From contig JBHLMP010000061.1 of NCBI GenBank assembly GCA_048938025.1, forward strand, positions 1-18,878: 18,878 bases of DNA. Direction: 5' to 3'. The notes beneath the pieces were generated by a model, which ran no database searches, was not told the DNA's origin, and worked only from the letters and a program-made list of their open reading frames with translations. Within the stretch, counting starts at the first letter, position 1, and each line of letters begins with the position of its first letter. This DNA is from Promethearchaeota archaeon (lineage in GTDB: Archaea > Asgardarchaeota > Lokiarchaeia > Sigyniarchaeales > SOKP01). Shown here piece by piece: positions 1-18,878 of the stretch. A program made the position numbers and the translations under genes.

Positions 1-359
1 CAGTGGTCATGCGATTTAGGCGTGACTTCTTCAATCCTTCCGACTTGTAGACCGGAGCGTGCGAGGGCACGGATGCATGCTTGAGCACCAGGACCGGGCG
101 TTTGCGATTTATTACCTCCGGGGGCTCTTACTTTGATATGTATCCCTCTAACACCTTTATCTTTGAGTTCATTAGCTACTCTAAAGCCGCACTGCATTGC
201 GGCATATGGATTGCTTTCATCTCTGTCAGCTTTTACTACCATACCACCGGAGCATTTTGCGAAGGTTTCTGCTCCGCTGAGGTCTGTAGCTGTCACAATC
301 GTATTATTATAACTCGAAAAGACGTGAATAATTGCCCATTTCATATCTTTGCTACTCAT
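1..359 (-). CDS. rps11: 30S ribosomal protein uS11 (3' end runs off window; missing from ORF track)
   Basis: Manual translation from ATG at 359: [56 protein letters not shown]...[44 protein letters not shown]. These are typical archaeal uS11 motifs, and the gene follows uS13-uS4. Confidence 0.97.
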
Positions 360-372
360 TTTTTATGCTCAC

Positions 373-900
373 TTAACTTTTTTCTTTAGCTTTTGTTTTT
401 ATTTTTGTTTTTGTTTCTGAAAAGGGGCTATTTGGAGCGAAACCGATTAAATCTTCTTCAGCTCTTTTTACGAGATAAGAAGGAGCATTTATTTTTTTAC
501 CACCAACTTGAATATGTCCATGAACAATTACTTGTCGTGCTTGATAGATTGTACTAGCAAGCCCTTTTTCATAAACTAAAGTTTGTAATCTTCTTTTAAG
601 AACATCTTCTACTGTAAGGAGGAGTACATCTTCAAATTCTGCTTCTGATCCAATAACACCTAATCGATCTAGTTTCCGAATGAGAGTTTGTTGTACTTCT
701 AAAGCTCTTTCTTTTGATAAGGTTCGAGATTGTCGAGCTATATCTCGCCAATTTCCAAGGATAGTTCGTGATTTCCAATATTCTCTTTTATTTCTAAGTC
801 CGTATTTTCCCAGAAATTCCAGCTCTTCCATCATTCTATCTTTTTGAAATGGGTGTTTAGGCTTTTTATATTTTTTTTTCAGACGTCGTGGATCTCCCAT
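373..900 (-). CDS. rps4: 30S ribosomal protein uS4 (archaeal type)
   Basis: N-terminal MGDPRRLKKKYKKPKHPF, KYGLRNKRE, and S4 domain RRLQTLVYEKGLASTIYQARQVIVHGHI; lies between uS13 and uS11. Confidence 0.97.
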   Translation of the reverse strand: MGDPRRLKKKYKKPKHPFQKDRMMEELEFLGKYGLRNKREYWKSRTILGNWRDIARQSRTLSKERALEVQQTLIRKLDRLGVIGSEAEFEDVLLLTVEDVLKRRLQTLVYEKGLASTIYQARQVIVHGHIQVGGKKINAPSYLVKRAEEDLIGFAPNSPFSETKTKIKTKAKEKS

Positions 901-910
901 TACTTTTCAC

Positions 911-1408
911 CTACTTTTTTGGCTGTATTATTCCCTTTTTCCTTCTTAGAACTCCAACGACTAAACCATGACGTCCAGTGCTTTTAGTTTTTTGTCCTCT
1001 TACTTTTAACTTTAAGTGATGTCTTACTCCTTTATAGCTTTTCATTCTTTTCATTCTGTCTATGTCTCTTTTAACGGCGATTTCTAATTGACTTCCGATT
1101 ACATGTGTATCTGTTCCATCTCTTAAATCTTTCTTTCGATTTACCATCCAAATTGGAATTCCATTTTCAACCGGGTTTAATATTATTTCTTCGATTCTAT
1201 TAAGATCCTTTTCAGGGAGAGCTCCAATTCTCACATTAGGATTAATATCTGTCACTCTAATTATTGCTTGAGCAAATCTTCTTCCGATTCCTTTAATCTG
1301 AGTTAACCCATATTCTACTTTTGTGTTACCATCAACTTGAGATCGAAGTTTACGAAAAAATACTTTTTCTCTAAAGTTTTTTGGTCTTACCGGTGATAAT
1401 GAACTCAT
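911..1408 (-). CDS. rps13: 30S ribosomal protein uS13
   Basis: LTQIKGIGRRFA H2TH motif, IPIWMVNRKKD, and SYKGVRHHLKLKVRGQKTKSTGR C-terminus. Confidence 0.97.
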   Translation of the reverse strand: MSSLSPVRPKNFREKVFFRKLRSQVDGNTKVEYGLTQIKGIGRRFAQAIIRVTDINPNVRIGALPEKDLNRIEEIILNPVENGIPIWMVNRKKDLRDGTDTHVIGSQLEIAVKRDIDRMKRMKSYKGVRHHLKLKVRGQKTKSTGRHGLVVGVLRRKKGIIQPKK

Positions 1409-1523
1409 TTCTAGTCTTATTATTTTTGAATAATATAATTCTAAATGTCAAATTTAATATTAATTTTATGGTTTCAGACATGAAGAACATAGAAATTAAG
1501 GGGTTTTTCTATACACAAAAAAT

Positions 1524-3014
1524 TTAGTAATTAGGAATTCGTAGATTTTCGTTTAGTCTCGAAGTAATATGCTTTTTAGAGGCATTCTTTTTTGAACCTG
1601 CTACTTTTTGAAGTAACGACAAACCAGGTTTTACATTTTCTATTGGTTTTGATTCAATCAGATTATTGGCTATTAGGCTATCATATAATTTTTTACCTTT
1701 ATCTGTTCTTATTATTACAGTATTCCATCCTAATGGAGAACCTATAGATCCTATAGAAATATCAGCTGATTCAGAGGTTAAGTCATAACAAACTTCACAA
1801 TCTGGACGGGCTAAATGGGAAATTTCTTTAATGGGTATACTTAATTCTTCATTTGCAGTGTAGATAAAAAATTTGCCCTTGTTAATATTCATTTTTCTAA
1901 TATCTTTAATATTTACATTTAATAATTCACAGATCTTTAAGATTGATTCATAAGAAAAAGATTCCATGCAAAAAATCCCAATCCTATATTTAACATTATT
2001 TAAAGAAGGGATAGTTAGGTTAAAAATTTCTGATTTTAATAATGCTTGCATCATGCATGGTACTCCTACAATTGCTAATGATTTATTTTCCTTATTTAAT
2101 TGGCTTAGCAATCTTAATGTAGGATTATTAACATATTTCGTTCCTGTAGTTAATAGGATATCCTCTTTGTTTCTTAGTAATATCGGCTCAGGACGCCATA
2201 TTGTTTGACTCATTTTTGCTCCTAAAGCAAGATCAATCATTTTTTTATCAAATAGATAATGCAGAACTGTACTAGTAATTCCTCCATCTTGACATACTTT
2301 AGCAATTTCTTTAAGTTTTGACCTAGCAGAATATATCTCTTTATACGGACCAATATTGGTATAAACTTTAAATTCGGAGCAGTTATCTTGATACATATTT
2401 AGAACATTCACAGGTAAAAAAGATCTTGGGCAGACAGAATAACATAATCCACATCTAATGCATTTATCTTCTTCGATTTTACCGAACCCATTATAGATGT
2501 TAAGGCAATTTACAGGGCAGATTCCTGCACATAAACTACAACCAGAGCAAATTTTTGAATCAAATATTACCTTTACAGGTTCATAAATAGACTGGATATT
2601 TGAAACTTTATCCCGATTAATTTTTATCGATAAATCTTTAAAAATTAATTTCTCTTGAGAATTTTCATCTCCCTTAATTTTTTCATATATTTCTTCTATT
2701 ATGACTCTTTTTTCATTTTTTAGTAATTCTAATAAACTTAAAGCTTTTCTAAGTTCAATTGAGTTCTCTTCAGAAAAATTTTTAATTGAAGTTAAGTTTG
2801 AATTCTGATTAGAACTTAAAAAATAGAATAATGTAAATTTAGATTGTTCTATATTGAACATCTTAAATAGGATATTATAGTATTGAGTTTCATCATAAAC
2901 TTCTGCATTTAATATATCTTCTTTTGCGTCTATAAGAGCTCTAACCCTATATGAATCTAAACTATCTGCTACTGTTTTTAAAAACTCCCATGAAAATTTT
3001 CCTTCAGAACTCAT
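1524..3014 (-). CDS. Coenzyme F420 hydrogenase/dehydrogenase beta subunit (FrhB/FdhB family) with 2x[4Fe-4S] ferredoxin domain and ~145-aa N-terminal extra domain
   Basis: CSGCSLCAGIC and CIRCGLCYSVC ferredoxin motifs; FrhB motifs QDGGITS, GTKY, VGVPCM, IGIFCMESF, CEVCYDLTSESADISIGSIGSPLGWNTVIIRT. Confidence 0.9.
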   Translation of the reverse strand: MSSEGKFSWEFLKTVADSLDSYRVRALIDAKEDILNAEVYDETQYYNILFKMFNIEQSKFTLFYFLSSNQNSNLTSIKNFSEENSIELRKALSLLELLKNEKRVIIEEIYEKIKGDENSQEKLIFKDLSIKINRDKVSNIQSIYEPVKVIFDSKICSGCSLCAGICPVNCLNIYNGFGKIEEDKCIRCGLCYSVCPRSFLPVNVLNMYQDNCSEFKVYTNIGPYKEIYSARSKLKEIAKVCQDGGITSTVLHYLFDKKMIDLALGAKMSQTIWRPEPILLRNKEDILLTTGTKYVNNPTLRLLSQLNKENKSLAIVGVPCMMQALLKSEIFNLTIPSLNNVKYRIGIFCMESFSYESILKICELLNVNIKDIRKMNINKGKFFIYTANEELSIPIKEISHLARPDCEVCYDLTSESADISIGSIGSPLGWNTVIIRTDKGKKLYDSLIANNLIESKPIENVKPGLSLLQKVAGSKKNASKKHITSRLNENLRIPNY

Positions 3015-3056
3015 AATTGTTATTTTTTTATAAATAACTATTTAATTATATAAAAT

Positions 3057-3125
3057 CCGAAAACCCTTGCTATGGGATAGTTACCTCTCAACTATGATTT
3101 TTTTGAAAGGCTCATTCTATTTCGG
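3057..3125 (-). promoter_or_regulatory. Candidate SECIS (selenocysteine insertion) RNA element overlapping the mvhD stop codon
   Basis: Minus-strand RNA: AUAG(3120-3117)/CUAU(3080-3077) lower stem; AUGA (3115-3112) opposite AA; 9-bp stem GCCUUUCAA(3111-3103)/UUGAGAGGU(3091-3083); A-rich loop AAAAAUCAUAG; outer pair CCGAA(3125-3121)/UUCGG(3061-3057). It lies directly 3' of two UGA-containing genes. The 3' side has AA instead of the canonical GA. Folded by eye only. Confidence 0.5.
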
Positions 3126-3549
3126 GTAAAATTTTTTTAGGTAGAGGAGGCAAAACTTCAATTTTTTTAGTAATATCCTCAACAGAATGAATGAATTTTT
3201 CTACATCTGCTGCAGAGACGAAATACTGCTGGATGCGATCTTCAGAAATCCCAATATGTTTAAATAATTTTTTTAAAAAAAGCACATGTTCATATGTATT
3301 CATATTTCCTTTTCCAAACTCACATTCTCCTTCTTTTCATGAAATTATTGCTACACCATCTGCTCCGTTCAGGAAACTCTCCATTATTAAATGAATACCT
3401 ACTCTTCCTGTACATCTAACTCTAATCAAGTGAAATTCAGACGAGTATGATTTTCTCGTAGTTCCAGTTAAATCCGCAGCAGAATAACCTCATTTTTCGC
3501 ATCCAAAAGCAATTACTTTTTTAAAATTTTTGTTTTCTATTTGAATCAT
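3112..3549 (-). CDS. mvhD: MvhD/VhuD [2Fe-2S] hydrogenase iron-sulfur subunit, predicted selenoprotein with two Sec (U20, U71), 145 aa
   Basis: From ATG at 3549: MIQIENKNFKKVIAFGCEK-U-GYSAADLTGTTRKSYSSEFHLIRVRCTGRVGIHLIMESFLNGADGVAIIS-U-KEGECEFGKGNMNTYEH... The TGAs at 3492-3490 and 3339-3337 match the Cys of the MvhD motifs CxxC-Y-xAD and GADGVxxxGC-xxGDC. In frame with the 3112..3303 ORF; GAGGT SD-like sequence upstream. Confidence 0.92.
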
Positions 3550-3570
3550 AAGATTTAACCTCTAAAATGT

Positions 3571-5568
3571 TTAATTTTCCTCGATTTTTTGTGCTTTTCC
3601 AATTGATTTAATCTCACTACTACCGATTCCTTTAATTTCTTCTATGAATTGTTTATCTCTATAATATTTTAAATCAATTGCTCTAGCGGGGCAAGATGTA
3701 AGACACACACCACAACCTTTACATTTCAAATCATCAACAATAGCGATATTATTTTCACCTACTTTTATGGCTTCATAGTAACAAACCTTTTCACATCTAC
3801 GGCATCCCATACAGAGGTTATTCTCTACTTCTGCAATAATTAATTCTTGGTTGATTGTATCATGAGAAAGCAGAGTGGCAACTTTACTCGCTGCAGCTAA
3901 AGCTGTCGATACTGAAAAGGGAATATTTTTTGGTCCTACAGCACATCCACAAATGTAAATTCCCATTGTATTCGTCTCTTGAGGACTTAAACACCCATGA
4001 ATTTCAGTTAAAAATCCATCTGGACCTTTTGTTAGACCTATCACATCTATTATTTCAGCAGTTCCTTTGGAAGGGATCATACCTGTAGATAATACAACTA
4101 GATCCGCATTAATTTTAAAAATTTCACCTGTTAATGATGAATATGCCCGAATTATTAATTTTTTTGTATCAGGGTCCTCCACTATTTCTCCTACTTTACC
4201 TCTAATCATTCTAATCCCTGAATCTCTTATTTTCCTATAATATTCTTCATTTCCTTTATCTGATGTCCTAATATCAATGTAAAATAAAATAACATCCATT
4301 TCAGGAAATTCTTGTTTTAATAATTGAGCATTTTTAAGAGCCACACTGCAACATACTGCTGAGCAATAAGGGAGTTCTTTAACAGATCTCGAACCAACAC
4401 ATTGAATCATTACAATTGTATTTGGAATCTGTCCATCAGAAATTCTATATACATGACCGTCAGTCGGACCAATCGGACTTAACATTCGTTCTAATTCTAT
4501 TTGAGTGATTACATCAGGAGATATCCCATAATTATAATCATTAGTTTCTATAATTGGATATTCATCATATCCAGTAGCAACAATTACCGCTCCGACATTT
4601 ATGTCTATATATTCTGGTTCTTGATCAAAATCAACCGCTTCAGCTGGGCAAACTCTTTGGCAGTTTTTGCAATTAATACAGGAAGTTTTATCGATAACTG
4701 CATAATTTGGTACAGCTTGTGGGAAAGGGATATAAATAGCACCTCTATCGCCAATTCCTCTGTCAAATTCATTAGGAATTTTAATAGGACATTGGGTTGT
4801 ACATAATCCACAACCTGTACATTTACTTACGTCAACATAACGAGGATTTTTTCTTATTTTACACTTATAATTACCTGGAATACCATTAAATTCGATAATA
4901 TCGCTATATGTATATAAATTTATATTTGGATGTTTGTAAGTATTAACCATTATTGGCGCAAGAACTCATATTCCACAATCATCAGTAGGATAAATTCTAT
5001 CTAGTTGTGCCATTTTTCCACCGATAGTAGGTTCTTTTTCAATTAGATAAACAGTTATTCCTTGGTTTGCTAAATCTAACGCAGCATTCATTCCTGCAAT
5101 TCCTGCTCCAATTACTAAAGCTGCTCTTTTTACTGGAATCTCTTTACGTGGAACGCTTTCTAGTTCACGGGCACGGTTTATTCCTGCTTGAACTAATCTT
5201 ATTGCCTTTTTAGTGGCACTTTTCTTATCATTTGCATGTACGAATGAACACTGTTCACGTAAATTAACCATCTGAAAATAATAAGGACTTAATCCAGCTT
5301 CAGCTAAAACTGCTCGATATGTAGGTTCGTGAATTTTTGGAGTACAAGCAGCGACAACAATCCTATTTAAACCTAATTCCAGAATATCATTTTTGATAAT
5401 TTGTTGCCCAGGATCACTACAAGTAAAATCATTTACTCTAGCAACTACGACATTTGAGAGGGGTTCAACAGCATCTCTTACAACATCACAATCTACAGTG
5501 GCTCCAATATTTACTCCTCACCTGCATACATACACACCTATTCTAACAGTGGTCTGATTATCAGACAT
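3571..5568 (-). CDS. hdrA: Heterodisulfide reductase subunit A (HdrA), predicted selenoprotein with two Sec (U17, U201), 665 aa
   Basis: From ATG at 5568: MSDNQTTVRIGVYVCR-U-GVNIGATVD...CSDPGQ...VVAACTPKIHEPTYR...NLREQCSFVH...GAGIAG (FAD)...YPTDDCGI-U-VLAPIMVNTYKHPNI, then inserted ferredoxins, CVGSR..YCSAVCC and C-terminal ferredoxins. The TGAs at 5520-5518 and 4968-4966 replace conserved Cys (CHCG and DCxxC-ILxP). The 4966..5271 and 3571..4950 ORFs are in the same frame. Confidence 0.94.
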
Positions 5569-5852
5569 TTAACCCACCCTTGTAATCTATCACCATTATT
5601 TAGTTGATATTTAATTTAACAAATAATAAAATATATTGATTAAGTAAAAAAAAGAAATAATTTATTCTTTCTGATTAGATTAAATAATTCTACTATTAAA
5701 TAAAAGAAAGTCATAGATTCGTAATTTTTTCTACTAATTTTTGAATTCTCAACAATATTTTATATGATTATTTTAGATCGAAATATGAATCCGAAAAAAC
5801 GAAAGAAAATTATCTAAATATATTTTTTTATTAATAATAACTTTCTATAATT

Positions 5853-6038
5853 ATGTCAGAGTCAGAAGAGAATAAGAGAGAGGAATTTGCTAAGCAATTT
5901 ATGCTTGAGGAAGGATTAAAGGGTAAAGCTAGGAGAATAAAAATTATGAAAATTATAGATAATGTAGGTTATGATAAAAAAAAGATAAAGACTGCTCTTC
6001 TTCGCTCAACAATAACTGAAAGAATTCAGCATGATTAA
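5853..6038 (+). CDS. Small hypothetical protein (61 aa)
   Basis: ATG start, TAA stop, charged helical composition, no overlap with other genes, upstream of serS; no family recognised. Confidence 0.65.
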   Translation: MSESEENKREEFAKQFMLEEGLKGKARRIKIMKIIDNVGYDKKKIKTALLRSTITERIQHD

Positions 6039-6142
6039 AATTTTTTTATTTTGCTATTATTATAGAAATTTCATAAAATTTTAATGATAAAATAAATAAA
6101 TTATTCAAGAGAGTTTCATTGAAAATTTAAAGTGGCTATAAT

Positions 6143-7432
6143 TTGCTCGACATCGAATTATATAGAAATGATTTGGAAAAGATTATTGAATCCGAAGTAA
6201 AAAGATTTAAAGATCCATCTAATGCTGAAAAAGTTTTAGAATATGACAAAAAATGGAGAGAGACTTTACAAAAACTACAAGATTTAAGGAGAGAAAGGAA
6301 TGAATTATCAATTCAAATTGGTAAATTTAAGAAATCTGGAGATACCAAAAAAGCTGAAGAAACTAAAATCAAATCTAAGGAAATTAAAGATAAAATAGAT
6401 GAATTAGAAGAAAAAAAAACTGAATTTTTTGAACGTAGAGAAAATTACCGATACATTGTGGGTAATATTTTACATGATTCTGTACCTATTGGTGAAACTG
6501 AAGAAGATAATGAAATTGTAATAACTGTTGGAAAATTACCAAAATTTGATTTTAAACCTTTATCTCATGTCAATTTAATCACTAAGATTGATGGAGCAGA
6601 TACAAAAAAGGCATCTGAAATCGCGGGTTCGAGATTTTACTTCTTAAAAGGAGATTTAGTTTCACTTAATTTAGCTCTGATAAGATTTGCTTTAGATAAA
6701 TTAATAAATAAGGATTATATTCCAATGTGGCCACCCTTCTTTATTAAATACGATATTATAAAAGCAGCGGCAGAATTAGCAGATTTTGAAGAACAATTAT
6801 ATAAAATTCAAGATGAAGATCTATTTATGATTGCCACCGCAGAACAAACATTAGCTGCTTATCATTATGATGAAATTATCGACCCCGAAAGATTACCTTT
6901 GAAATATGCTGGAGTATCATCTTGCTTTAGACGAGAAGCAGGATCTCATGGGAAAGACACATTAGGAATATTTAGAGTACACCAATTTGAAAAGGTTGAA
7001 CAATTTATTTTTTGTAAACCAGAACATTCATGGAAGCTATATGAAGAGCTGATAGAAAATGTAAAAGAAATTTTTCAGGATTTAAAAATACCCTATAGAA
7101 TCGTAAATATTGCGTCTGGAGAATTAAATGATAATGCTGCTAAAAAGTATGACCTTGAAGCTTGGTTTCCCGCTTCAGAAAATTATCGTGAACTCGTTTC
7201 ATGTAGCAATTGTACAGATTATCAGGCAAGGAAATTGAAAATAAGAATGGGAAAAGTTGGTTCACAGCAAGCTAAAGAGATTTTGCATACCTTAAATTCA
7301 ACTGCAATAGCAACAACGCGAACTATTTGTTGTATATTAGAAAATTTTCAAAATAAGGACCATTCAGTATCAATTCCAGAGGTCCTTCAAAAATATATGA
7401 ATGGTAAAAAAATTATTAAAGCAGTAAAATAA
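6143..7432 (+). CDS. serS: Serine--tRNA ligase (canonical type), TTG start
   Basis: MLDI start, N-terminal coiled-coil arm, IATAEQ, motif 2 CFRREAGSHGKDTLGIFRVHQFEKVEQF, KKYDLEAWFP, ELVSCSNCTDYQAR, HTLNSTAIATTR. Confidence 0.97.
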   Translation: MLDIELYRNDLEKIIESEVKRFKDPSNAEKVLEYDKKWRETLQKLQDLRRERNELSIQIGKFKKSGDTKKAEETKIKSKEIKDKIDELEEKKTEFFERRENYRYIVGNILHDSVPIGETEEDNEIVITVGKLPKFDFKPLSHVNLITKIDGADTKKASEIAGSRFYFLKGDLVSLNLALIRFALDKLINKDYIPMWPPFFIKYDIIKAAAELADFEEQLYKIQDEDLFMIATAEQTLAAYHYDEIIDPERLPLKYAGVSSCFRREAGSHGKDTLGIFRVHQFEKVEQFIFCKPEHSWKLYEELIENVKEIFQDLKIPYRIVNIASGELNDNAAKKYDLEAWFPASENYRELVSCSNCTDYQARKLKIRMGKVGSQQAKEILHTLNSTAIATTRTICCILENFQNKDHSVSIPEVLQKYMNGKKIIKAVK

Positions 7433-7446
7433 AAGTAGAAATAATA

Positions 7447-8679
7447 ATGATTGAAATATCTTTGGAAGAATTTGAAGATTTTTACAAAAAAAAGATTAAT
7501 TCTCAATTTTCAAAAATAAAGAGAGCAACCCAAAAATTAATAACTGACATTCGAGAAAACTTAATCGAAATTAAAGTCTGTATGGATCATTTTATAAAAT
7601 CTGGAGAAAGTAAAGTCGATGGAATAGCTCAAAAATCGTTACACTTCTTTTCTGACAAAATAAGAAAAGAGATTGATGAAATTGAAATTCCTGACGAAGA
7701 TATTTACTATGATAATGTAAATGATCTACTTAATTCTACAAAAAAGCTATTCCCCACTATAAATGAAATTGCTAGAAAGGCATTTCCAAAATTTCAGAAG
7801 GAAGTTCAAACTGAAATCAAAGAGCTCGATTATATTACCCGAAAATTGGGAAAAAAGCAAGGCATTCTTGATGAATTCTTAAGAAAAAAATATAGTGATG
7901 TAAGGGAAGCAGAAGAATTACTAAAAAAATTACCAAAATTGTTTTCTCTGAGAGATCATATTGAAAAAACTAGAATTGAATTGGATGAATTTGAAAATGA
8001 CCATGAAGAGAAAAAAGAGGTTCAAAAGAAATTAAATTCGGAATTAATTGAGCTTGAGAAAAATCAATTATTTAAAAATCTAGAAGATGAAGAGGACAAT
8101 TTATTCAAACTAAAGTTAAAGATTAATGATGTAATAGGATTCAAGAAAGCTCTAAAAAAATTAAAATTTGAATTAGAAAAGGGGACAATTAATGTTCCTA
8201 ATATCGATCTGAATTATCTCAAAGAATTTCTTAAAAATCCCATTAGAATGTTAAGTATTGAACGAAAAGACTTACCAAAATTTACAACTCTCATGGTACA
8301 ATTACGCCATTCATTAGAGGAGAATAAATTAAGCCTCAAATCAGAAACAAAAGAGAAAACAATTGAGCAAATAAATGCTATTTTTGATGAAAAAGAGTTA
8401 CAAGCAAATATTGAGACTTATCTACAAGTGAAAGAAAAAATAAAAGAGATTAAAAATAAAATTGAAGAAGCAGGTCTAGCTCAAAAACTAGATGACTTAA
8501 AAAATCAAATATCAATAATCAGCATTAAATTAGAGCATATCGAGAATGATAAGAACCGAAAAAATAAGGATTATACTAGATATCTTAGTAATTTAAAAGT
8601 TGAACGCGAAACTTTTCAAAATATGGCTGAAAATATATTAAACGAGCCTGTAAAAATTAGTATCACATTTTCATTTTAG
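7447..8679 (+). CDS. Hypothetical coiled-coil protein (410 aa)
   Basis: Long ORF 14 nt after serS, rich in E/K/L heptads; no catalytic or P-loop motif seen. Confidence 0.8.
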   Translation: MIEISLEEFEDFYKKKINSQFSKIKRATQKLITDIRENLIEIKVCMDHFIKSGESKVDGIAQKSLHFFSDKIRKEIDEIEIPDEDIYYDNVNDLLNSTKKLFPTINEIARKAFPKFQKEVQTEIKELDYITRKLGKKQGILDEFLRKKYSDVREAEELLKKLPKLFSLRDHIEKTRIELDEFENDHEEKKEVQKKLNSELIELEKNQLFKNLEDEEDNLFKLKLKINDVIGFKKALKKLKFELEKGTINVPNIDLNYLKEFLKNPIRMLSIERKDLPKFTTLMVQLRHSLEENKLSLKSETKEKTIEQINAIFDEKELQANIETYLQVKEKIKEIKNKIEEAGLAQKLDDLKNQISIISIKLEHIENDKNRKNKDYTRYLSNLKVERETFQNMAENILNEPVKISITFSF

Positions 8680-8694
8680 TTTTTCAATTTGTGT

Positions 8695-9426
8695 TTACTT
8701 TTTTTTTATTATCCTGAACACCCGATTATTATCAACATTAACTTTTTTTAAGGTTAGATTTAAATTTTTTTTTAAAAATTGGTAAGTTTCTGTATGCGTT
8801 AAATTAAAAATTTTTAAATAATTGTATGCTAACACTATATCTTGCTTAACATCCACATCAAACCCTGCTCTAAAGGAATCATAAATCGATATCTTTTTTA
8901 TCCCCATATCATTTGCTTTCTGTATTAAGGCTACTAAAGAGGGTATATTTGGATCTGCAAAAAATGTAGGAATTATATCAGGAGGATTTCTTCCAAGTAT
9001 AGATATTCCAGCAGATTGAATAGCAGGACAAACTAATAATTGATTATTTTTTAACATTTCATTAATTTCATTAAAGTTACGAGCTTTGATTAAAATTATA
9101 TCTATAAACGTTAATATTGTACTTTCTGCATTAAATTTATTAATTGCTATATCATTAAGATTTTTAATAACTTCATCAAACGATTTAGGAGGATTAGTTA
9201 AATTCTCTTTAATTCCAATCAACCCATAATCTTCAGCAAAATCCAATATCTCATCAGTATTACAGTATACTATTTGTTTATCAAAACATGTGACCATAGT
9301 CAAAGTCTTTATTAGGTCTTTAAACATAGCTAAAGTTAAGTCTCTAAGTTGATTATTTGAAAAACAATCTCTAAGTCGAGATTTTGTTCTTGATAATGGT
9401 GCCACAGGAATTAATAAAATACTCAT
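8695..9426 (-). CDS. cofC: CofC-like 2-phospho-L-lactate/PEP guanylyltransferase (F420 biosynthesis), divergent
   Basis: N-terminal ILLIPVAPLSRTKSRL...RDLTLAMFKDLIKTL matches the CofC IPVK-xxxAKSRL...AMLxDV pattern; C-terminal GFDVDVKQDI matches DVDxxxDL. Confidence 0.72.
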   Translation of the reverse strand: MSILLIPVAPLSRTKSRLRDCFSNNQLRDLTLAMFKDLIKTLTMVTCFDKQIVYCNTDEILDFAEDYGLIGIKENLTNPPKSFDEVIKNLNDIAINKFNAESTILTFIDIILIKARNFNEINEMLKNNQLLVCPAIQSAGISILGRNPPDIIPTFFADPNIPSLVALIQKANDMGIKKISIYDSFRAGFDVDVKQDIVLAYNYLKIFNLTHTETYQFLKKNLNLTLKKVNVDNNRVFRIIKKK

Positions 9427-9500
9427 AGTAATAATCTAATAAATTTAATACAACATAAAAATAATAATGGAGGATCTTTTAAATTTAGATAGTTCAAAAC

Positions 9501-10058
9501 TTATTTTAATTTATTCAAAATTTGAACTGATAAAGTTTCAAATGCCTTATTTACATTTTCATTTAACTTGGCTGAAGTCTCAAAATACTTTACTCCTAAA
9601 CTATTTACTTTTTTATCTATAATTTGTTTATTAATATTTCTTTTTAAATCAGTTTTATTTCCAACAATAATATATGGAATATCTCCACTTACTTCTTCTA
9701 ATTTTGAAATCCAAAAATCTAAATTTTTAAAGGAAGATAGATCATTTAAATTAAAAACTACCATAGCTCCAACTGCTTGGACAAAATAATACTCATTACT
9801 AAAAAGTTTATCTTGCTGCCCTCCGATGTCCCAGAAGTACAATTTAAAGCCTTTTTCTTTCACATCTTTCTTCAATTCTGGATTTTTAAAGTCTAATTTA
9901 TCAAGAATGTTTGTTAAATCAATTTCTTTTATTAAAAAATTAGCTCCTATTGTTTGATGATATCCTTCGTTAAACTTGTCATCTACATATCGTACTAATA
10001 AAGATGTTTTGCCAACTCCAGGCTCTCCACACAAAATCACTTTCCCTCGATACGACAT
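9501..10058 (-). CDS. Ras-superfamily (Rab-like) small GTPase
   Basis: G1 GEPGVGKTS, G2 TIGANF, G3 WDIGGQ, G4 NKTD, G5 ETSAK; no C-terminal Cys prenylation motif. Confidence 0.95.
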   Translation of the reverse strand: MSYRGKVILCGEPGVGKTSLLVRYVDDKFNEGYHQTIGANFLIKEIDLTNILDKLDFKNPELKKDVKEKGFKLYFWDIGGQQDKLFSNEYYFVQAVGAMVVFNLNDLSSFKNLDFWISKLEEVSGDIPYIIVGNKTDLKRNINKQIIDKKVNSLGVKYFETSAKLNENVNKAFETLSVQILNKLK

Positions 10059-10169
10059 ATAATCAATTCCCCCTTTTTTTTATCCTATGCTTTATAAATT
10101 AATTTTTATTAAATTTTTATTCGATTTTTTTACTTTATCATCCTTCATATTAAAATAAAATTTAAAGAT

Positions 10170-11012
10170 TCAACTTGGATAAGGTACTTTTTTTGGAGTT
10201 AATTGAATTTCCTTGCATTCTGAAGAAATGAAATGTTTAAATAAATGTTCATACCCAATAATTTGTTTTGGTACACCATTTTCCAACCATAATCCTGAAG
10301 TATATTCAGGGGCTTCTTTTACTTGATCTAACGTGGTAAGTAAAAACTCGTTGTCAGTAATCAATAATCCAAAAGGAATTACGCTATCGCCTTCTATAGA
10401 ATGAATTACTACTGAAATTTTCAATAATTTTTTCATCTCTTCTTTTAAGGTATCATTGTATTTTAGAGCAATAACAACTTGGATATCAGATGAAAATTTC
10501 TTATTCCAAAGATCTTTTAAAATCCAATCATAGCCTCCTAATTCTGTCATTAATAGATCAGGAGTAATTATGAAAAAGATTCGTTTCTTTGCAAAACTGA
10601 TTAGTTCTTTAATCTTTTTTCTAATTTTCTCTCTTGAGTTAATAGACCATACTCGGGGTTCAGATTCTTCTTTATCAATTTCCAATTCGCTTATTGCTTT
10701 CTCTAATATTAATGTATCTTCTATTTTTTGCTTGTATTCCTCACGAATAACTTTGAATATTCTTTCTATCGGTATTACTTGATAATTTGCACCTCTCTTT
10801 ATAGGTTCTTTTTGAATAAAACCTTTTTCGATTAATCTATTTAACGAGTCATAAACTCTTGCGCGATCTACTCCTGAGTGTTTTGCAATATCTGCTGGAC
10901 TTAATATTTTATATTTACATAAGGTAAGTAAGACTTTGGAATCATTCTTCGTGAAACCTAATGATTGAAGCGCAACCTCAATTTCAGTTTCATCAATATT
11001 ATTTTCTAGCAA
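10170..11012 (-). CDS. TrmB-family transcriptional regulator (TTG start, TGA stop)
   Basis: N-terminal wHTH LQSLGFTKNDSKVLLTL...ADIAKHSGVDRARVYDSLNRLIEKGFI, followed by VWSI...LISFAKKRIFFI effector-like domain. Confidence 0.88.
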   Translation of the reverse strand: MLENNIDETEIEVALQSLGFTKNDSKVLLTLCKYKILSPADIAKHSGVDRARVYDSLNRLIEKGFIQKEPIKRGANYQVIPIERIFKVIREEYKQKIEDTLILEKAISELEIDKEESEPRVWSINSREKIRKKIKELISFAKKRIFFIITPDLLMTELGGYDWILKDLWNKKFSSDIQVVIALKYNDTLKEEMKKLLKISVVIHSIEGDSVIPFGLLITDNEFLLTTLDQVKEAPEYTSGLWLENGVPKQIIGYEHLFKHFISSECKEIQLTPKKVPYPS

Positions 11013-11428
11013 TTTCCAGAATTGTCAATTTTTTTTTATATCTATATTATAATAATCTATTCTTAGATTTTATATTTTAATTTATTTTTTTAATTAAAAT
11101 TAAAATTATCAAGAATAAATGAAATAATAGAAATAATAGAATTTTTCTTATAATTAGTGAATCTTTTTTATTGAAATCTTAATAAGTATATAATATTGAA
11201 TAATTAAGAAATCAAGATTTTATTTAATAGAAGTTGAAATTTCAACAATTATCTATTCCTTAAAAATTTCACAATGCTTAATAATAAATTGAAAAATTTT
11301 CGAAGAGAATATTGAGATATTAATAAAAGTGAAAATTCAAAAAATTAAGAAATAAAGCCTTCATTTAATAAAAATTAAAATTTGATTTTAGTCGGAAAAA
11401 TTTTTCTAAAATTAATATAACGATCTGA

Positions 11429-11497
11429 TATTCGAATACCATTGATCTCTCTTTATCGCTCTCTCAAAATATTGATTCGAATCATAACATTTATATA
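11429..11497 (+). promoter_or_regulatory. Putative histone gene promoter: TATA-like TTTATATA (11490-11497) preceded by two ATTCGAAT-core palindromes
   Basis: TATTCGAATA at 11429-11438 and TGATTCGAATCA at 11473-11484; TATA-like element ~80 nt upstream of the ATG; GGAGG SD-like sequence just before 11579. Confidence 0.45.
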
Positions 11498-11578
11498 ATA
11501 GAAATGTGTAGTTATAATTAATTATTAATTTAATAAAATAAAAGTAATCTTATTTAAAATTAGTGGAGGAATAAAAAA

Positions 11579-11824
11579 ATGGCAAAAAAGAAACCCGCAC
11601 CAGCCAAAGCGAAAAAGAAGGCTGAAGGATATATTGCTAAAGCACCTATTCGAAGATTAATGAAGAAAGAAGGCGCTGATCTAGTTGCTGCTGAAGCCTT
11701 AGATAAATTAATAGACTTTTTAGAGAAAAGCGCAGCAAATGCTACAAAAGAAGCACTCAAAGTCTGTAAAACCGACAAGCGCAAACGGATAACGGCTGCT
11801 GATGTAAGGAATGCAACAAGATAA
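11579..11824 (+). CDS. Archaeal histone (HMf-like fold) with Lys/Ala/Pro-rich N-terminal tail
   Basis: IAKAPIRRLMKKEGA (alpha1), VAAEALDKL...ANATKEALKVC (alpha2), KRKRITAADV (L2-alpha3, cf. RKTIxxxD); tail MAKKKPAPAKAKKKAEG. Confidence 0.93.
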   Translation: MAKKKPAPAKAKKKAEGYIAKAPIRRLMKKEGADLVAAEALDKLIDFLEKSAANATKEALKVCKTDKRKRITAADVRNATR

Positions 11825-11850
11825 GTAATTTAAATTTAGAATAATTTTAG

Positions 11851-11870
11851 TTTTTTTTTCTTTTTTTATT
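11851..11870 (+). terminator. Oligo-T archaeal terminator candidate downstream of histone
   Basis: TTTTTTTTTCTTTTTTTATT ~27 nt after the histone stop, in a convergent intergenic region. Confidence 0.5.
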
Positions 11871-11880
11871 GTTTAACTAA

Positions 11881-12405
11881 TTAAAAACTTTCAAAAAATT
11901 TTTTAGTTAGATATTTATTGATATTACTTTCTAACTTCTTTTTAACATTATCTAATCCCTCAGGTAATACTCGTGTTTTGCCCACTATATCTATAAAACC
12001 GAGTTCAGAGCCATATCGGGGAACCAAATGAAAATGCAAATGATCAATACTACCTCCTGCATCTCTCCCTTGGTTTATACCAATATTATACCCCTTAGGG
12101 CTATATAGATCGTCCAATAACAATTGTATTCCCTGAATTGTCCTAGTAATGTGAAGTAATTCTTCTTTAGTAAGTTCAAGGAACTTCGTTATGTGTCTCC
12201 GGGTTACAATCATTAAATGAGCTGGATTATATGGATAAAGGTTGAGAACGACGAAGCAGAGATGATCTTCATAGATTTTCAGGGATTTGACCCTCCCATC
12301 ATTATCTCGTACGGCACATAAAATGCAATCAACTTTAGGTCTAGCTTTTCCTTGAACATAATCCAATTTTCCTAGTGCTTGTAACCACTTATTAAAAATA
12401 ATCAT
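11881..12405 (-). CDS. HIT-family nucleotide hydrolase (Ap4A hydrolase/phosphorylase-like)
   Basis: CILC, LNLYPYNPAHLMIV, GYNIGINQGRDAGGSIDHLHFHLVPR histidine triad. Confidence 0.93.
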   Translation of the reverse strand: MIIFNKWLQALGKLDYVQGKARPKVDCILCAVRDNDGRVKSLKIYEDHLCFVVLNLYPYNPAHLMIVTRRHITKFLELTKEELLHITRTIQGIQLLLDDLYSPKGYNIGINQGRDAGGSIDHLHFHLVPRYGSELGFIDIVGKTRVLPEGLDNVKKKLESNINKYLTKKFFESF

Positions 12406-12423
12406 TCACCATTAAAATAATTA

Positions 12424-12960
12424 TTAAGAGTATAGAGAAAAATCAGGACCAGATGTAAATTCTTTACTTTTAGTAAAATCCTCTGGTTTAATTTTCCCAA
12501 CACAATATTCGCTTAAAATAATATTACTTAAAACAGCACAATTAAAGACTCTACGCACACTATTGTAAAAAGTCTTTTTTGACACTAGTCCATGTTGATT
12601 TAGAAATATTTGATCACTAATTTCATATCTATGATTTTGAATATCGATTCTAAAAAACATATCTCTTAGGAGAAATAATTTTCTTAATTCCATAAAATAT
12701 TCCATCTTCTTATTTTCTTTTAAAGAATTTAAAGCATTCACATGAGGAGGAGAAATTTGAGTGCCTAAACTTATAATAATCAAATCCTTATTCTTTGGTT
12801 TAAAGACTACCATTAAATTTCCCCTTGGACCGGGAGGAAAAGAAAATTGAAATCCAAATTCAAGTTTTTGCTCATTATTGGGTATTTTTTTCCTCAAAAG
12901 CCCCTCATCTAAAAGAAATTCTCTAATAAGATGTTTAATTTTACTTTCTTCAATAGACAT
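12424..12960 (-). CDS. Conserved archaeal hypothetical protein, DUF2299-like
   Basis: IREFLLDEGL, FSFPPG, VFKPKNKD, ISPPHVNAL pattern recalled for DUF2299; not verified by search. Confidence 0.6.
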   Translation of the reverse strand: MSIEESKIKHLIREFLLDEGLLRKKIPNNEQKLEFGFQFSFPPGPRGNLMVVFKPKNKDLIIISLGTQISPPHVNALNSLKENKKMEYFMELRKLFLLRDMFFRIDIQNHRYEISDQIFLNQHGLVSKKTFYNSVRRVFNCAVLSNIILSEYCVGKIKPEDFTKSKEFTSGPDFSLYS

Positions 12961-13053
12961 TTTTTATCAATAAATTAAAGAATTAATTCCTTAATTTAAT
13001 TTTTTAAGAAAGGTTTAAATCTCTTATTAAAAGTTCACAATATGTATCTGAAC

Positions 13054-13407
13054 TTAATATTTGCCTTTCGGCCTAAGTTGAGGTTGAATGCCAGCATTCT
13101 TCAATTTTTCAATATTATTTTCTAATTCTTCATTTGAAGTACAAAATATTACTTGTAAAGAACCTACGTCGATAAATATATTACCTACTATACCTAAACC
13201 CATCAGTTGATTTTCCTTATCAATAAAAGTATGATCAATATCCATTTTAATTGCTTGTTTATTTCCTTCTAATTCAACTAATTGGGGTTGACAAGCAGTA
13301 TAGCCTGCTCCTCTATTTCTTAATAAGTAAGTCATAATTGCATAATCTAATTCATCGTTAATTTCTCCTTGTTCTTGAAGGACCTTAATTACATTTGGAG
13401 CTGACAT
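13054..13407 (-). CDS. Hypothetical protein (117 aa)
   Basis: Clean ATG-TAA ORF co-oriented with neighbours; no family recognised. Confidence 0.75.
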   Translation of the reverse strand: MSAPNVIKVLQEQGEINDELDYAIMTYLLRNRGAGYTACQPQLVELEGNKQAIKMDIDHTFIDKENQLMGLGIVGNIFIDVGSLQVIFCTSNEELENNIEKLKNAGIQPQLRPKGKY

Positions 13408-13514
13408 TTTTATTAATAATATTTTTCTTATTTAGATTAAAATTAGTGAAAGTAATTAATAATATTTTGGTTAAGGTCTTATTGAAAAAAAAATAATGAT
13501 AAAAAATATTTTAT

Positions 13515-13769
13515 TTATTTCATTTGTTCATATATAACCTCATCAACTGAATGCAATGCACAATTCATACTACTTAAAACTTCAGTTACATTTTCTAATA
13601 AAATGTCATTTCCCTCAATACTAATATGTAAAGACGCTGTTTTTTGATCTAACTCATCAACTTTGATTCGCACTTTTGTCATGCCTTCAATTTCCATTAA
13701 TGTCCGAGCAACTAAATCAACAGAAGGCATATGGGGTTTTAAAATATCTAAATCAAAGACAACTTTCAT
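13515..13769 (-). CDS. DUF211-like small archaeal protein
   Basis: VFDLDILKPHMPS ... ISIEG ... LHSVDEV matches the DUF211 LDVLKPHxPS/IEG/IHSIDEV pattern. Confidence 0.8.
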   Translation of the reverse strand: MKVVFDLDILKPHMPSVDLVARTLMEIEGMTKVRIKVDELDQKTASLHISIEGNDILLENVTEVLSSMNCALHSVDEVIYEQMK

Positions 13770-13865
13770 TATTTTATTTTAAACCTTTTAGTTTTATTAA
13801 TCTAATTTGATATTTTTAAACTCTATCAATATTAATTTAGTAAATACTTATAATTTTTTATTTAT

Positions 13866-14558
13866 TTATAAAAGTTCCTCAATAGCGTTTATTAATTTTG
13901 AAGGAATATCATTAAGTTCAATAACTTTATCTGCTTTTTCAAAAGTTTCTTGCTTATGGAAATTAGATCTTTTAGTATTTAAAGCAATGGAGTGAGCTCC
14001 CACATTGATAGCTGCTTCAATATCACGATCAGAATCTCCAATAACCACAATTTCATCTGGTTCAACGTTTAGTTCATTACATATGAATCTTAGATGATCT
14101 GGATGTGGTTTTAGATTTGAAATATTATCTCGTCCTACTATTATTACAAAAAATCCTAATAACCTGACTTTTTTAAGTGATATTTTTGCATTTTTTCTTG
14201 TATTAAATGTAAAAATAGCTTGTTTTAGATCTTTAGATTTAGCAAATTTTAGTACTTGATCAATCCCATTAATCATTGTTGCATTCACAGCAGCTTTATA
14301 TTCGATTTTTATTATTTCTTTATCTACTTCCGCTATTATAGCATTTACTTTTCCATTAGAAAATCCCTTTTTTTGAAAAAAATCTCTTGCACTTGTAACA
14401 TTCTCTAAAATTGAATATTTCACAGTAAGAAGATTTTTAGGGACACCATAATTTTTTAAAATTTTAATAGCTACGTGACGTGCTCTTAAATAATCAATTT
14501 TAAAATGTATAAGAGTTCCATCCAAATCCCAAACTATTGCCTTAATAGACTTCAACAT
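13866..14558 (-). CDS. HAD-superfamily hydrolase (phosphoglycolate phosphatase-like)
   Basis: Motif I WDLDGTL, motif II IFTFN, motif III KPHP, motif IV IGDSDRDIEAA. Confidence 0.92.
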   Translation of the reverse strand: MLKSIKAIVWDLDGTLIHFKIDYLRARHVAIKILKNYGVPKNLLTVKYSILENVTSARDFFQKKGFSNGKVNAIIAEVDKEIIKIEYKAAVNATMINGIDQVLKFAKSKDLKQAIFTFNTRKNAKISLKKVRLLGFFVIIVGRDNISNLKPHPDHLRFICNELNVEPDEIVVIGDSDRDIEAAINVGAHSIALNTKRSNFHKQETFEKADKVIELNDIPSKLINAIEELL

Positions 14559-15131
14559 TTAATATACCAGATCAGAATATATTGGTCCTTTTTGAGTTAA
14601 AATAGATTTTTTCAATTTAACTTCGTTTATATTAAAAGATCCAAATTCTAAATTTTTATTTTCATTAATTAATTTTTTGAGCATATCAAAAGTTTTATAA
14701 TTTATATTAGTCTTTTTTAATCGCGCAATTGTTAGGTGAGGTTGGAACTTGGTTCTTTTATCACGATCAATTTTTAATTTTGTATTTAGTAGTTCTTCAA
14801 TAGTATCTTTAATTCTTTGTAAGAATTGAATGTCACCAATGAGTTTTATCCATAAAACTGAAAAGCTATTAAACTGACCTACACCTTTGAGAAAATATTT
14901 AAATTCTTTACCTTGGAACATCTTTTGGTTGACTTCTTCTTTTAATATAGTAAAAATTTTTGGGGCTAAAGGTTCAGGGATATTTCCAAGAAATTTTAAG
15001 GTCATATGAAGATTTTCTGGTTTCACAAGTTTAAGTTTTGGTTGATTTTGTTGTAAACGAGAAGTGAAAGATACAATTCTCTCAATAGTATCTTGATTTT
15101 TTAATTCAATTGCTATAAAGGTTCTCATCAT
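14559..15131 (-). CDS. thpR: RNA 2',3'-cyclic phosphodiesterase (2H phosphoesterase, ThpR/LigT)
   Basis: MRTFIAIEL start, ENLHMTLKFLG and FQPHLTIAR HxT motifs, KSILTQKGPIY C-terminus. Confidence 0.93.
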   Translation of the reverse strand: MMRTFIAIELKNQDTIERIVSFTSRLQQNQPKLKLVKPENLHMTLKFLGNIPEPLAPKIFTILKEEVNQKMFQGKEFKYFLKGVGQFNSFSVLWIKLIGDIQFLQRIKDTIEELLNTKLKIDRDKRTKFQPHLTIARLKKTNINYKTFDMLKKLINENKNLEFGSFNINEVKLKKSILTQKGPIYSDLVY

Positions 15132-15147
15132 GGTTATTTTTCCCTTT

Positions 15148-16284: not shown

Positions 16285-16316
16285 AATTATTATTCGTAAT
16301 AATTTAATTTCAATTT

Positions 16317-17279: not shown

Positions 17280-17341
17280 ATTATATCAATTTAGTATTAA
17301 ACAATATTTATTAAACTTAATTTAACATTAAGTTTATTTAA

Positions 17342-18878
<1,537 letters not shown>

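Follow-up and report, generated by a model that had tools for sequence, protein, structure and literature searches.

The stretch analysed here, called the window below, comprises the 18,878 nucleotides (nt) of contig JBHLMP010000061.1 (positions 1 to 18,878, forward strand) from the Promethearchaeota archaeon assembly GCA_048938025.1, a member of the Lokiarchaeia (Sigyniarchaeales). Promethearchaeota is a phylum within the kingdom Promethearchaeati, and we take its name to be the current one for Lokiarchaeota. On the minus strand, the window carries a tandem of two genes, hdrA and mvhD, whose reading frames contain four in-frame UGA codons. Judging from the comparisons described below, these codons are almost certainly read as selenocysteine (Sec, U) with the help of one RNA signal shared by both genes.

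The hdrA-mvhD pair and its in-frame UGA codons

The region window:3112-5568(-) was translated with TGA read as U. A single frame without frameshift, 5568..3571(-), encodes an HdrA of 665 amino acids (aa) and closes with a TAA stop at 3573..3571; a second frame, 3549..3112(-), encodes an MvhD of 145 aa and closes with a TGA at 3114..3112. The two genes are arranged in tandem on the same strand with a spacer of 21 nt, and their 810 codons hold neither a frameshift nor any stop other than the TGAs. Translation with table 11 yields pieces only (3571..4950, 4966..5271 and 3112..3303), and the 459-aa HdrA fragment obtained in this way has no exact match in the searched protein collection. The genes and their internal UGA codons are the following:

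3571..5568, minus strand: hdrA, 665 codons plus TAA stop; N-terminal cluster domain, FAD/TrxR domain, inserted and C-terminal ferredoxin domains
5518..5520, minus strand: UGA of the predicted HdrA Sec17 (codon 17), in VCRUG (C-x-U, N-terminal cluster domain); Cys in 5odc, 9sfi and 8rvu
4966..4968, minus strand: UGA of the predicted HdrA Sec201 (codon 201), in DDCGIUVLAP; equivalent to Cys197 of 5odc, Sec197 (X) of 9sfi and Cys205 of 8rvu; the canonical position
3112..3549, minus strand: mvhD/vhuD, 145 codons plus UGA stop (3114..3112); PF02662, 128.7 bits
3490..3492, minus strand: UGA of the predicted MvhD Sec20 (codon 20), in GCEKUG (C-x-x-U); equivalent to Cys16 of Methanothermobacter marburgensis MvhD; X in 9sfi_K
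3337..3339, minus strand: UGA of the predicted MvhD Sec71 (codon 71), in GADGVAIISUKEGEC; equivalent to Cys67 of M. marburgensis MvhD; X in 9sfi_K

HdrA aligns over its full length with solved HdrA chains, namely 9sfi_A (E = 1.7e-217, 727 bits), 5odc_A (E = 4.3e-211) and 8rvu_a (E = 5.5e-200), and its domain set is complete: the end-to-end alignment with 9sfi_A and 5odc_A contains all cluster cysteines and the flavin adenine dinucleotide (FAD) domain. MvhD belongs to PF02662 (FlpD), well above the gathering score of 22.3 bits, and also matches solved MvhD/VhuD chains; its five conserved Cys positions (C17, U20, C46, U71 and C76) are invariant in alignment A2. The best NCBIfam model for both proteins is HdrA2 (NF040770), of which HdrA spans positions 1-642 and MvhD positions 643-772. 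HdrA stays below every NCBIfam equivalog cut-off (602.9 bits for 1400 in NF041778, 609.5 for 1300 in NF041891 and 812.7 for 1100 in NF040770), and MvhD reaches 112.6 bits with NF040770, also under the 1100-bit cut-off.

The preliminary description of this DNA had proposed, from the letters alone, that reading through TGA gives a full HdrA and a full MvhD without frameshift, with TGAs at 5520, 4968, 3492 and 3339 that all fall on conserved Cys. Both frames were recovered with TGA read as U, the coordinates and motifs were exactly as it gave them, and each site aligns to an invariant Cys, or to a Sec, in the solved Hdr complexes. The Methanococcus maripaludis entry 9sfi has X (Sec) opposite three of the four sites (HdrA U201, MvhD U20 and MvhD U71), and HdrA U17, one of the four invariant Cys of the N-terminal cluster (HA3) domain, faces Cys in every solved chain compared. 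The idea that U17 is the less familiar position holds with respect to methanogens only, as in the present lineage U17 is the rule; five possible Sec positions had already been given for Loki HdrA by Mariotti et al. (2016, PMC4989117; this paper, Huang 2024 [PMC11227280], PMC13518236, PMC12350162 and PMC9012536 are cited throughout from the part of their text that was accessible). The anticipated fragmentation by standard pipelines is borne out by table-11 calling, which splits both genes, and the suggested comparison with homologues revealed an alternation of Sec and Cys at these columns in relatives and in paralogues of the same genome.

Nine full-length HdrA are encoded in this genome and all HdrA Cys columns are conserved among them: columns 17 and 201 are both U in five, one of which has a further U in column 75, and both Cys in the other four. 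Similarly, the two MvhD sites are both U in four of the 11 copies and both Cys in seven. Four of the five Sec-HdrA genes are each followed by one of these four Sec-MvhD genes, and three of the Cys-type HdrA paralogues are of the fused HdrA-MvhD form (783-848 aa). An HdrA match was found in 150 of the 151 genomes of the class; among the match rows listed, two TGAs are present in residues 1-218 in all but six, of which five have three TGAs and one has a single TGA. Where positions were checked directly, U occupies HdrA columns 17 and 201 in 30/30 top loci and in 21/21 full-length orthologues, which together represent 42 genomes at 53-97% protein identity. The third TGA corresponds to column 75 in the three further loci fetched (3/3), in locus L070 and in the own-genome paralogue on contig C29. 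MvhD site 1 (U20) is U in 18/18 orthologues and site 2 (U71) is U in 15/18 and Cys in 3/18. The stop of hdrA in the 21 orthologues is TAA in 20 cases, TAG in one and TGA in none. Finally, contigs from runs X1, X4 and X6 (studies P1, P2 and P3, X1 possibly being the source sample) cover all five TGA positions and carry no other letter there among the rows listed, and they differ from the window at other positions; run X8 covers 4966-4968 only.

Two alternatives have to be weighed against these data. One is that the TGAs are genuine stops in decaying pseudogenes or gene fragments, which is what table-11 calling, with its fragments, would suggest. Yet the 810 codons hold no frameshift or other stop, the same TGA codons are kept across the 42 genomes despite their divergence, the stops lie on Cys columns only, and both a SECIS element supported by covariation and the Sec machinery are present (see below); the pseudogene reading is effectively refuted. 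The other is that UGA is read by something other than a Sec-tRNA, either through a genome-wide reassignment or through near-cognate read-through by Cys or Trp tRNAs, and Sec and Cys insertion at UGA are indeed not distinguishable by computation. Nevertheless, UGA ends ordinary genes (a TrmB-like open reading frame [ORF] stops at TGA 10170, and reading through it adds a tail only), mvhD itself has a UGA stop, the in-frame TGAs fall exclusively on Cys columns of known selenoprotein families, and a SECIS and a candidate tRNA-Sec(UCA) exist, which leaves this explanation highly unlikely. The conservation of the TGAs across genomes, paralogues and studies, together with the use of TGA as the end of ordinary genes, makes a pseudogene, a sequencing error or a general reassignment very unlikely: hdrA and mvhD are real, intact selenoprotein genes.

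A shared lokiSECIS and the selenocysteine machinery

A selenocysteine insertion sequence of the Loki type (lokiSECIS) lies at the 3' end of mvhD. Its parts are:

3057..3125, minus strand: lokiSECIS, at the mvhD 3' end; from folding, pattern search and covariation
3125..3120 with 3062..3057, minus strand: lower stem
3115..3112, minus strand: AUGA core, the UGA of which is the mvhD stop codon
3111..3103 with 3091..3083, minus strand: upper stem, 9 bp
3102..3092, minus strand: apical loop, 11 nt, with five A first and AG last
3082..3081, minus strand: AA
3076..3074 with 3066..3064, minus strand: extra 3'-side hairpin in the internal loop, followed by a T-run

The published lokiSECIS consists of an AUGA, a 9-bp stem, an 11-nt loop with an A-rich start and a terminal G, and then GA or AA; the window element has every feature listed in section 11 of PMC4989117, and an AUGA_AA variant has been described for hdrA/frhD of Lokiarchaeia (Huang 2024, PMC11227280). 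With a strict pattern, a lokiSECIS was found in the window and in the loci of 17/20 relatives, the remaining three being recognised by eye with small deviations, and only one was found in the contig of the window. The minimum free energy fold of the window element consists of the same three helices (-16.9 kcal/mol, z = -2.10, 8/200 shuffles as good). The three-helix structure (lower stem, 9-bp upper stem and 3'-side hairpin) was then submitted to a covariation test on alignment A1, made up of 20 elements, with 500 shuffles. Paired cells amounted to 91.3% (81.6 ± 0.9 in shuffles) and changes on both sides were seen in 17/20 pairs (7.2 ± 1.7 in shuffles); none of the 500 shuffles reached the observed values and all slid registers scored far lower. 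The lower stem and the extra hairpin are both conserved and both contain compensatory changes, and the hairpin may have a role in recoding or in transcript termination. A search of positions 2950-3250 against Rfam, at E values up to 10, returned no SECIS family and only chance matches.

It could be argued that each UGA has its own local hairpin of the bacterial type, but nothing was found in favour of this. The 63 nt downstream of each internal UGA form structures no better than those of shuffles (z = -0.31, -0.14, +0.52 and -1.52), the spacer between the genes measures only 21 nt and the strict pattern detects one lokiSECIS in the contig, so that local hairpins are extremely unlikely. Given the lack of local hairpins and the short spacer, the single element has to serve UGAs located up to 2.4 kb away. 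The fact that the hdrA stop is never UGA is as the model of Mariotti et al. (2016) predicts.

The end of mvhD varies around the element. In most relatives it is a TAG situated a few bases before the AUGA (tail ...NPK; L056-L068, compared with window 3112-3135(-)), and the window and its two closest relatives use the other frame at the mvhD tail (...ILPEIE), in which the TAG is passed out of frame and the stop is the core UGA. Two further exact lokiSECIS geometries (9-bp stem and 11-nt loop) were seen elsewhere in the genome, at G000:C54:16838 and C72:82301; both would presumably act on other selenoprotein genes. The C54 element is located just upstream of a gene with a CCG domain.

The preliminary description had proposed a search of the genome for tRNA-Sec, SelD, PSTK, SepSecS and EFSec, and all of them were found, the tRNA-Sec and PSTK as candidates only. 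SepSecS (385.7 bits, C48:21260-22417) and an EFSec/SelB-type factor (243.7 bits, C48:25907-26818) are encoded on the same contig, and two adjacent SelD genes with one in-frame TGA each are found at G000:C35:31639-32436 and 32973-33734; outside Loki- and Thorarchaeia, it is unusual to find several selD genes (Huang 2024, PMC11227280). The candidate tRNA-Sec(UCA) gene (G000:C48:22636-22784(-)) lies next to SepSecS and 3 kb from EFSec. It appears to hold two inserts: when ~29-30 nt in the region of the D arm and ~30-32 nt in the T loop were removed in silico, ARAGORN called tRNA-SeC(tca), and nothing else, in 737/12,480 variants. Since a single 31-nt intron in the T loop has been reported for the Loki tRNA-Sec (Mariotti et al. 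2016, PMC4989117), the D-arm insert would be a second intron. The other two RF01852 candidates were rejected, as one is tRNA-Ser-like and the other a tRNA-Gly. We also observed that the divergent neighbour of hdrA (6143-7432(+)) is a seryl-tRNA synthetase, the enzyme that charges tRNA-Sec with serine; its position beside hdrA is probably a coincidence.

A probable partner gene and the place of the predicted selenocysteines

Downstream of mvhD follows a third gene:

1524..3014, minus strand: frhB-like, 496 aa; N-terminal 145 aa without family, then 2x[4Fe-4S], FrhB_N and FrhB_C

Its product matches 3zfs_C (E = 1.3e-63) and passes the cut-off of NF006807 (274.8 for 269 bits), and it is nearer to FrhB (218.7 bits) than to ElpB (61.1 bits). 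It is present in the public collection, where it is named only 'Coenzyme F420 hydrogenase/dehydrogenase, beta subunit C-terminal domain'. Its first 150 aa match no Pfam family at E values up to 5, and we observed that the first 145 residues (2580-3014(-)) are conserved in 16 relatives. A frhB-like gene directly follows mvhD in all of the orthologous loci that have mvhD (17/17), and two other Sec-type pairs of the genome are also followed by FrhB-family genes (on C26 in full, on C29 cut by the contig end). Genes for the biosynthesis of coenzyme F420 are present as well: CofG, CofD and CofE exceed their cut-offs in the genome and a CofC-like gene lies in the window. The constant FrhB-like gene and the F420 biosynthesis genes suggest an F420-linked electron-bifurcating module without adjacent HdrBC. 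From this gene content, we infer a bifurcating or confurcating module whose high-potential partner is not encoded nearby, and in which the FrhB-like protein is the probable F420-reactive partner of MvhD-HdrA. A literature search for HdrA with FrhB in Asgard archaea or Lokiarchaeota returned no paper on this cluster by title or abstract.

As to the function of the selenocysteines, structural studies of related complexes offer several indications. In M. marburgensis, MvhD Cys16 and HdrA Cys202/205 are described as 'additional' cysteines between the MvhD [2Fe-2S] cluster and the bifurcating FAD; Cys202/205, which bind an unknown ligand in all four substates, hold it together with MvhD Asp71 and near His68 (PMC13580544). 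Without any gap, HdrA C198/U201 align to Cys202/Cys205 of M. marburgensis HdrA, and MvhD K72 and E75 to His68 and Asp71 of its MvhD. Another study located a density that a Cys and Sec197 hold between cluster A3 and FAD, and its authors suggest a selenylsulfide whose role they leave unresolved (PMC13518236). In a crystal structure, Cys197 is an in-trans ligand of the partner's N-terminal cluster (PMC9012536), so that U201 may have a ligand role. HA3 is regarded as a shuttle cluster that takes the low-potential electron when the arm swings (PMC12350162, PMC13580544). Before these structures were available, the Loki Sec sites had been considered, with one exception, not to be cluster ligands (Mariotti et al. 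2016, PMC4989117). Combined with the alignment, the structural papers place all the Sec positions here (HdrA 17, 75 and 201, MvhD 20 and 71) on or beside the two clusters of the mobile arm that alternately face the flavin. In the literature search, no publication was encountered that assigns the extra Asgard Sec positions to HA3.

The preliminary description had proposed that Sec is an Fe-S ligand at all four sites, in which case the only effect of selenium would be to adjust the potential of each of the two clusters (MvhD [2Fe-2S] and HdrA N-terminal [4Fe-4S]). The alignment of the four sites to invariant Cys and the in-trans ligation by Cys197 (PMC9012536) would agree with this, and U17, column 75 and U201 would then be part of one cluster, which fits their joint switching between Sec and Cys. 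Nevertheless, the MvhD cluster takes four ligands, one fewer than the five invariant Cys of the protein, and Cys16 (= U20) is named as an additional, non-ligand residue (PMC13580544); the Cys202/205 pair holds the unknown ligand in all substates and may include a Cys-Sec197 selenylsulfide (PMC13518236); and Gly occupies column 17 in one relative, an argument against a ligand at that position being indispensable. Simple ligation by all four Sec thus looks quite improbable. What stands of the proposal is U71, which is probably a [2Fe-2S] ligand, by elimination only, once the 'additional' one is subtracted from the five invariant MvhD Cys, and possibly U201. It does not seem to hold for U20, equivalent to the 'additional' Cys16, which would not be a plain ligand, and perhaps not for U201 either, as C198/U201 correspond to Cys202/205. 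Given its strict pairing with U201 and the one Gly variant, U17 is open to both a ligand and a relay role. An alignment of the HdrA N-terminal domain with MvhD by hhalign places HdrA C50 on MvhD C46 and HdrA C75 on MvhD U71, at a probability of 7.3% and an E value of 0.0048 that are too weak to rely on. The two domains presumably share a fold. Within MvhD residues 71-76 (window 3322-3339) and their counterparts in paralogues, the residue that follows MvhD site 2, which corresponds to the His68 located near the unknown ligand (PMC13580544), is His in 1/19 Sec copies vs 8/10 Cys copies, the Sec being otherwise followed by K, R, Y or E; because the copies are related, this correlation is a hint only.

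A bolder proposal, which we consider rather unlikely, is that the Sec are active residues of the electron path from the arm clusters to the flavin. In that case, HdrA 17 (and 75 in some copies), C198/U201 and MvhD U20/U71 would form one relay or ligand-exchange site, in which Sec17 and Sec201' of the partner would swap on HA3, or bridge to it, when the arm swings. If this were true, the joint switching of Sec17 and Sec201 would draw attention to a residue not so far implicated by the methanogen structures, and selenium would be a built-in spectroscopic and anomalous-scattering probe of the relay step.

The explanation that we favor, and hold to be highly probable, is that hdrA and mvhD are intact selenoprotein genes whose four UGAs are recoded under one lokiSECIS, and that their products form a flavin-based bifurcating complex with an FrhB-like partner that is probably F420-linked. 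Both genes would presumably be on one mRNA, on which all the internal UGAs would be recoded by Sec-tRNA(Sec) and EFSec under the direction of a single eukaryote-like lokiSECIS, the first UGA being up to 2.4 kb off; the UGA of the AUGA core would be too close for recoding and would act as the mvhD stop codon, after Mariotti et al. (2016). HdrA and MvhD would respectively provide the flavin core and the mobile arm of the complex (for the mobile-arm model, see PMC13580544, PMC12350162 and PMC13518236). The four Sec would be on or beside the MvhD [2Fe-2S] and the HdrA N-terminal [4Fe-4S] HA3, both of which would alternately approach the bifurcating FAD: probably U71, and perhaps U17 and U201, as cluster ligands, and probably U20 together with C198/U201 as the 'additional' Cys/Sec relay that links cluster and flavin. 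The downstream FrhB-like subunit would probably feed or withdraw electrons as F420H2/F420, and the high-potential acceptor would be encoded elsewhere than near the locus.

Several observations weigh against parts of this explanation. Among the sequencing runs, no RNA run was listed as containing the locus, a result that speaks neither for nor against it. The PSTK-like gene (139.4 bits) is under the NCBIfam curated cut-off of 290.5, and the tRNA-Sec (34.6 bits) is under the Rfam gathering score of 47, so that both are candidates only; ARAGORN found no tRNA-SeC in the whole genome or in the raw stretches of the three RF01852 candidates. Taken alone, the SECIS of the window has only a moderate folding advantage over shuffles (z = -1.76 and -2.10, with 10 and 8 of 200 shuffles as good). 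The relative with a single TGA, an MvhD-less orthologue, has Gly at HdrA column 17. None of the 33 HdrB/C (CCG) matches in the genome is in the window, on C85 or beside another Sec-type hdrA, and heterodisulfide reduction is consequently not implied; CCG genes do adjoin Cys-type hdrA on C36, C30 and C67. No Pfam family of an FdhA/ElpA-like bridging subunit was found among the ORFs of the window. Lastly, PMC13518236, PMC9012536 and PMC13580544 disagree on the role of Cys/Sec197.

Other copies and neighbours deserve mention. A second Sec-type HdrA without mvhD is encoded at G000:C87:40150-42243 (= L092:6151-8244); it is 73% identical to the HdrA of the window and has U at columns 17 and 201. MvhD-less Sec-HdrA also occur in L071, L072 and L073, and 678-aa orthologues are present in many genomes. 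The C-terminus of the MvhD-less HdrA continues into a remnant of MvhD, its last ~25 residues, and the stop is the UGA of a near-identical lokiSECIS, which has a compensatory change from G·U to U-A at the base of its stem. This paralogue sits uneasily with the published rule that hdrA and frhD are always tandem neighbours. Two MvhD-less orthologues, L074 (G104:C71) and L072 (G094:C1), deviate in other ways, one having Gly (GGA) at column 17 and the other a TGA at the non-conserved column 112; they could be real variants, decaying copies or assembly errors. The same contig C87 encodes a 928-aa fusion (G000:C87:34609-37392 = L092:609-3392) with 2x[4Fe-4S], FrhB_N/C, Fer4_20 and Pyr_redox_2 (GltD/NfnB-like), preceded by a DHODB-type Fe-S protein, and by its domains it is another F420-linked redox module of the genome. 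Within the window, a 410-aa Lys/Glu-rich ORF (7447-8679(+)) has no Pfam or NCBIfam family, and a Ras-family small GTPase (9501-10058(-); PF00071, 129.3 bits) is a typical Asgard signature gene.

Comparison with known systems

The precedent named in the preliminary description, Mariotti et al. (2016), was well chosen: multi-Sec HdrA, two-Sec VhuD and a shared lokiSECIS of Lokiarchaeota are described there. According to that paper (PMC4989117), HdrA has five possible Sec positions with up to four per gene, VhuD has two Sec, the tandem is obligatory and the lokiSECIS is shared over ~2 kb; Huang 2024 (PMC11227280) extended the survey to 1439 selenoprotein sequences from 227 Sec-using Asgard genomes. 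The locus resembles these Loki pairs (PMC4989117, PMC11227280) in its multi-Sec HdrA, always with the canonical ~200 position, its two-Sec VhuD, the same-strand tandem with a very short spacer, an hdrA that never ends in UGA and a single SECIS after the second gene, in which the stop codon can lie inside the AUGA; there is no essential difference. In the accessible text of both papers, whose supplements may already include this locus, the positions of its Sec and the lower portions of its SECIS, we did not find the 3'-side hairpin backed by covariation, the constant coupling of Sec17 to Sec201 or the placement of this pair on HA3 and the 'additional cysteines', the FrhB-like neighbour, or the MvhD-less Sec-HdrA paralogue.

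Among methanogens, the Hdr-Vhu complex of M. maripaludis (9sfi/9t1s; PMC13518236) shares Sec at HdrA 197 (= U201) and at both VhuD positions, as well as the domain order. It differs by its Cys at the position of U17 and its euryarchaeal type of SECIS, and its HdrA works with HdrBC and the Vhu hydrogenase in methanogenesis, none of which is encoded near the present locus. The nearest characterised analogue is Elp-Hdr, a complex from M. marburgensis (8rvu; PMC12350162), in which an FdhB-like subunit oxidises F420H2 and the electrons travel via an MvhD homologue to the bifurcating FAD. Unlike in the window, ElpB docks via ElpA, a truncated FdhA for which there is no gene here, Elp-Hdr has no Sec, and the FrhB-like protein of the window has the extra N-terminus of 145 aa. 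HdrA2 (NF040770) is a fused HdrA-MvhD, whereas the genes are split here and their scores (812.7 and 112.6) stay below 1100. Finally, eukaryotic type I SECIS and multi-Sec mRNAs such as that of SelP have in common with the lokiSECIS an AUGA...GA/AA core resembling a kink-turn, unpaired apical A, a 3' location and the ability to act remotely on several UGAs (PMC4989117); the upper stem of the lokiSECIS is shorter, it serves two cistrons and it matches no Rfam SECIS.

The locus is a further member of the published Loki HdrA-VhuD kind and involves no new principle. Its practical value is to illustrate once more that central redox genes of this kind are fragmented by table-11 annotation. A modest gain in understanding comes from the Sec positions, which include exactly the 'additional cysteines' that the structural papers of 2026 name as the unexplained link between the MvhD [2Fe-2S] and FAD. 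Moreover, the association of Sec-type pairs with FrhB-like genes, and of Cys-type copies with adjoining HdrBC genes, is a hint that the many HdrA paralogues of Asgard archaea divide tasks among themselves.

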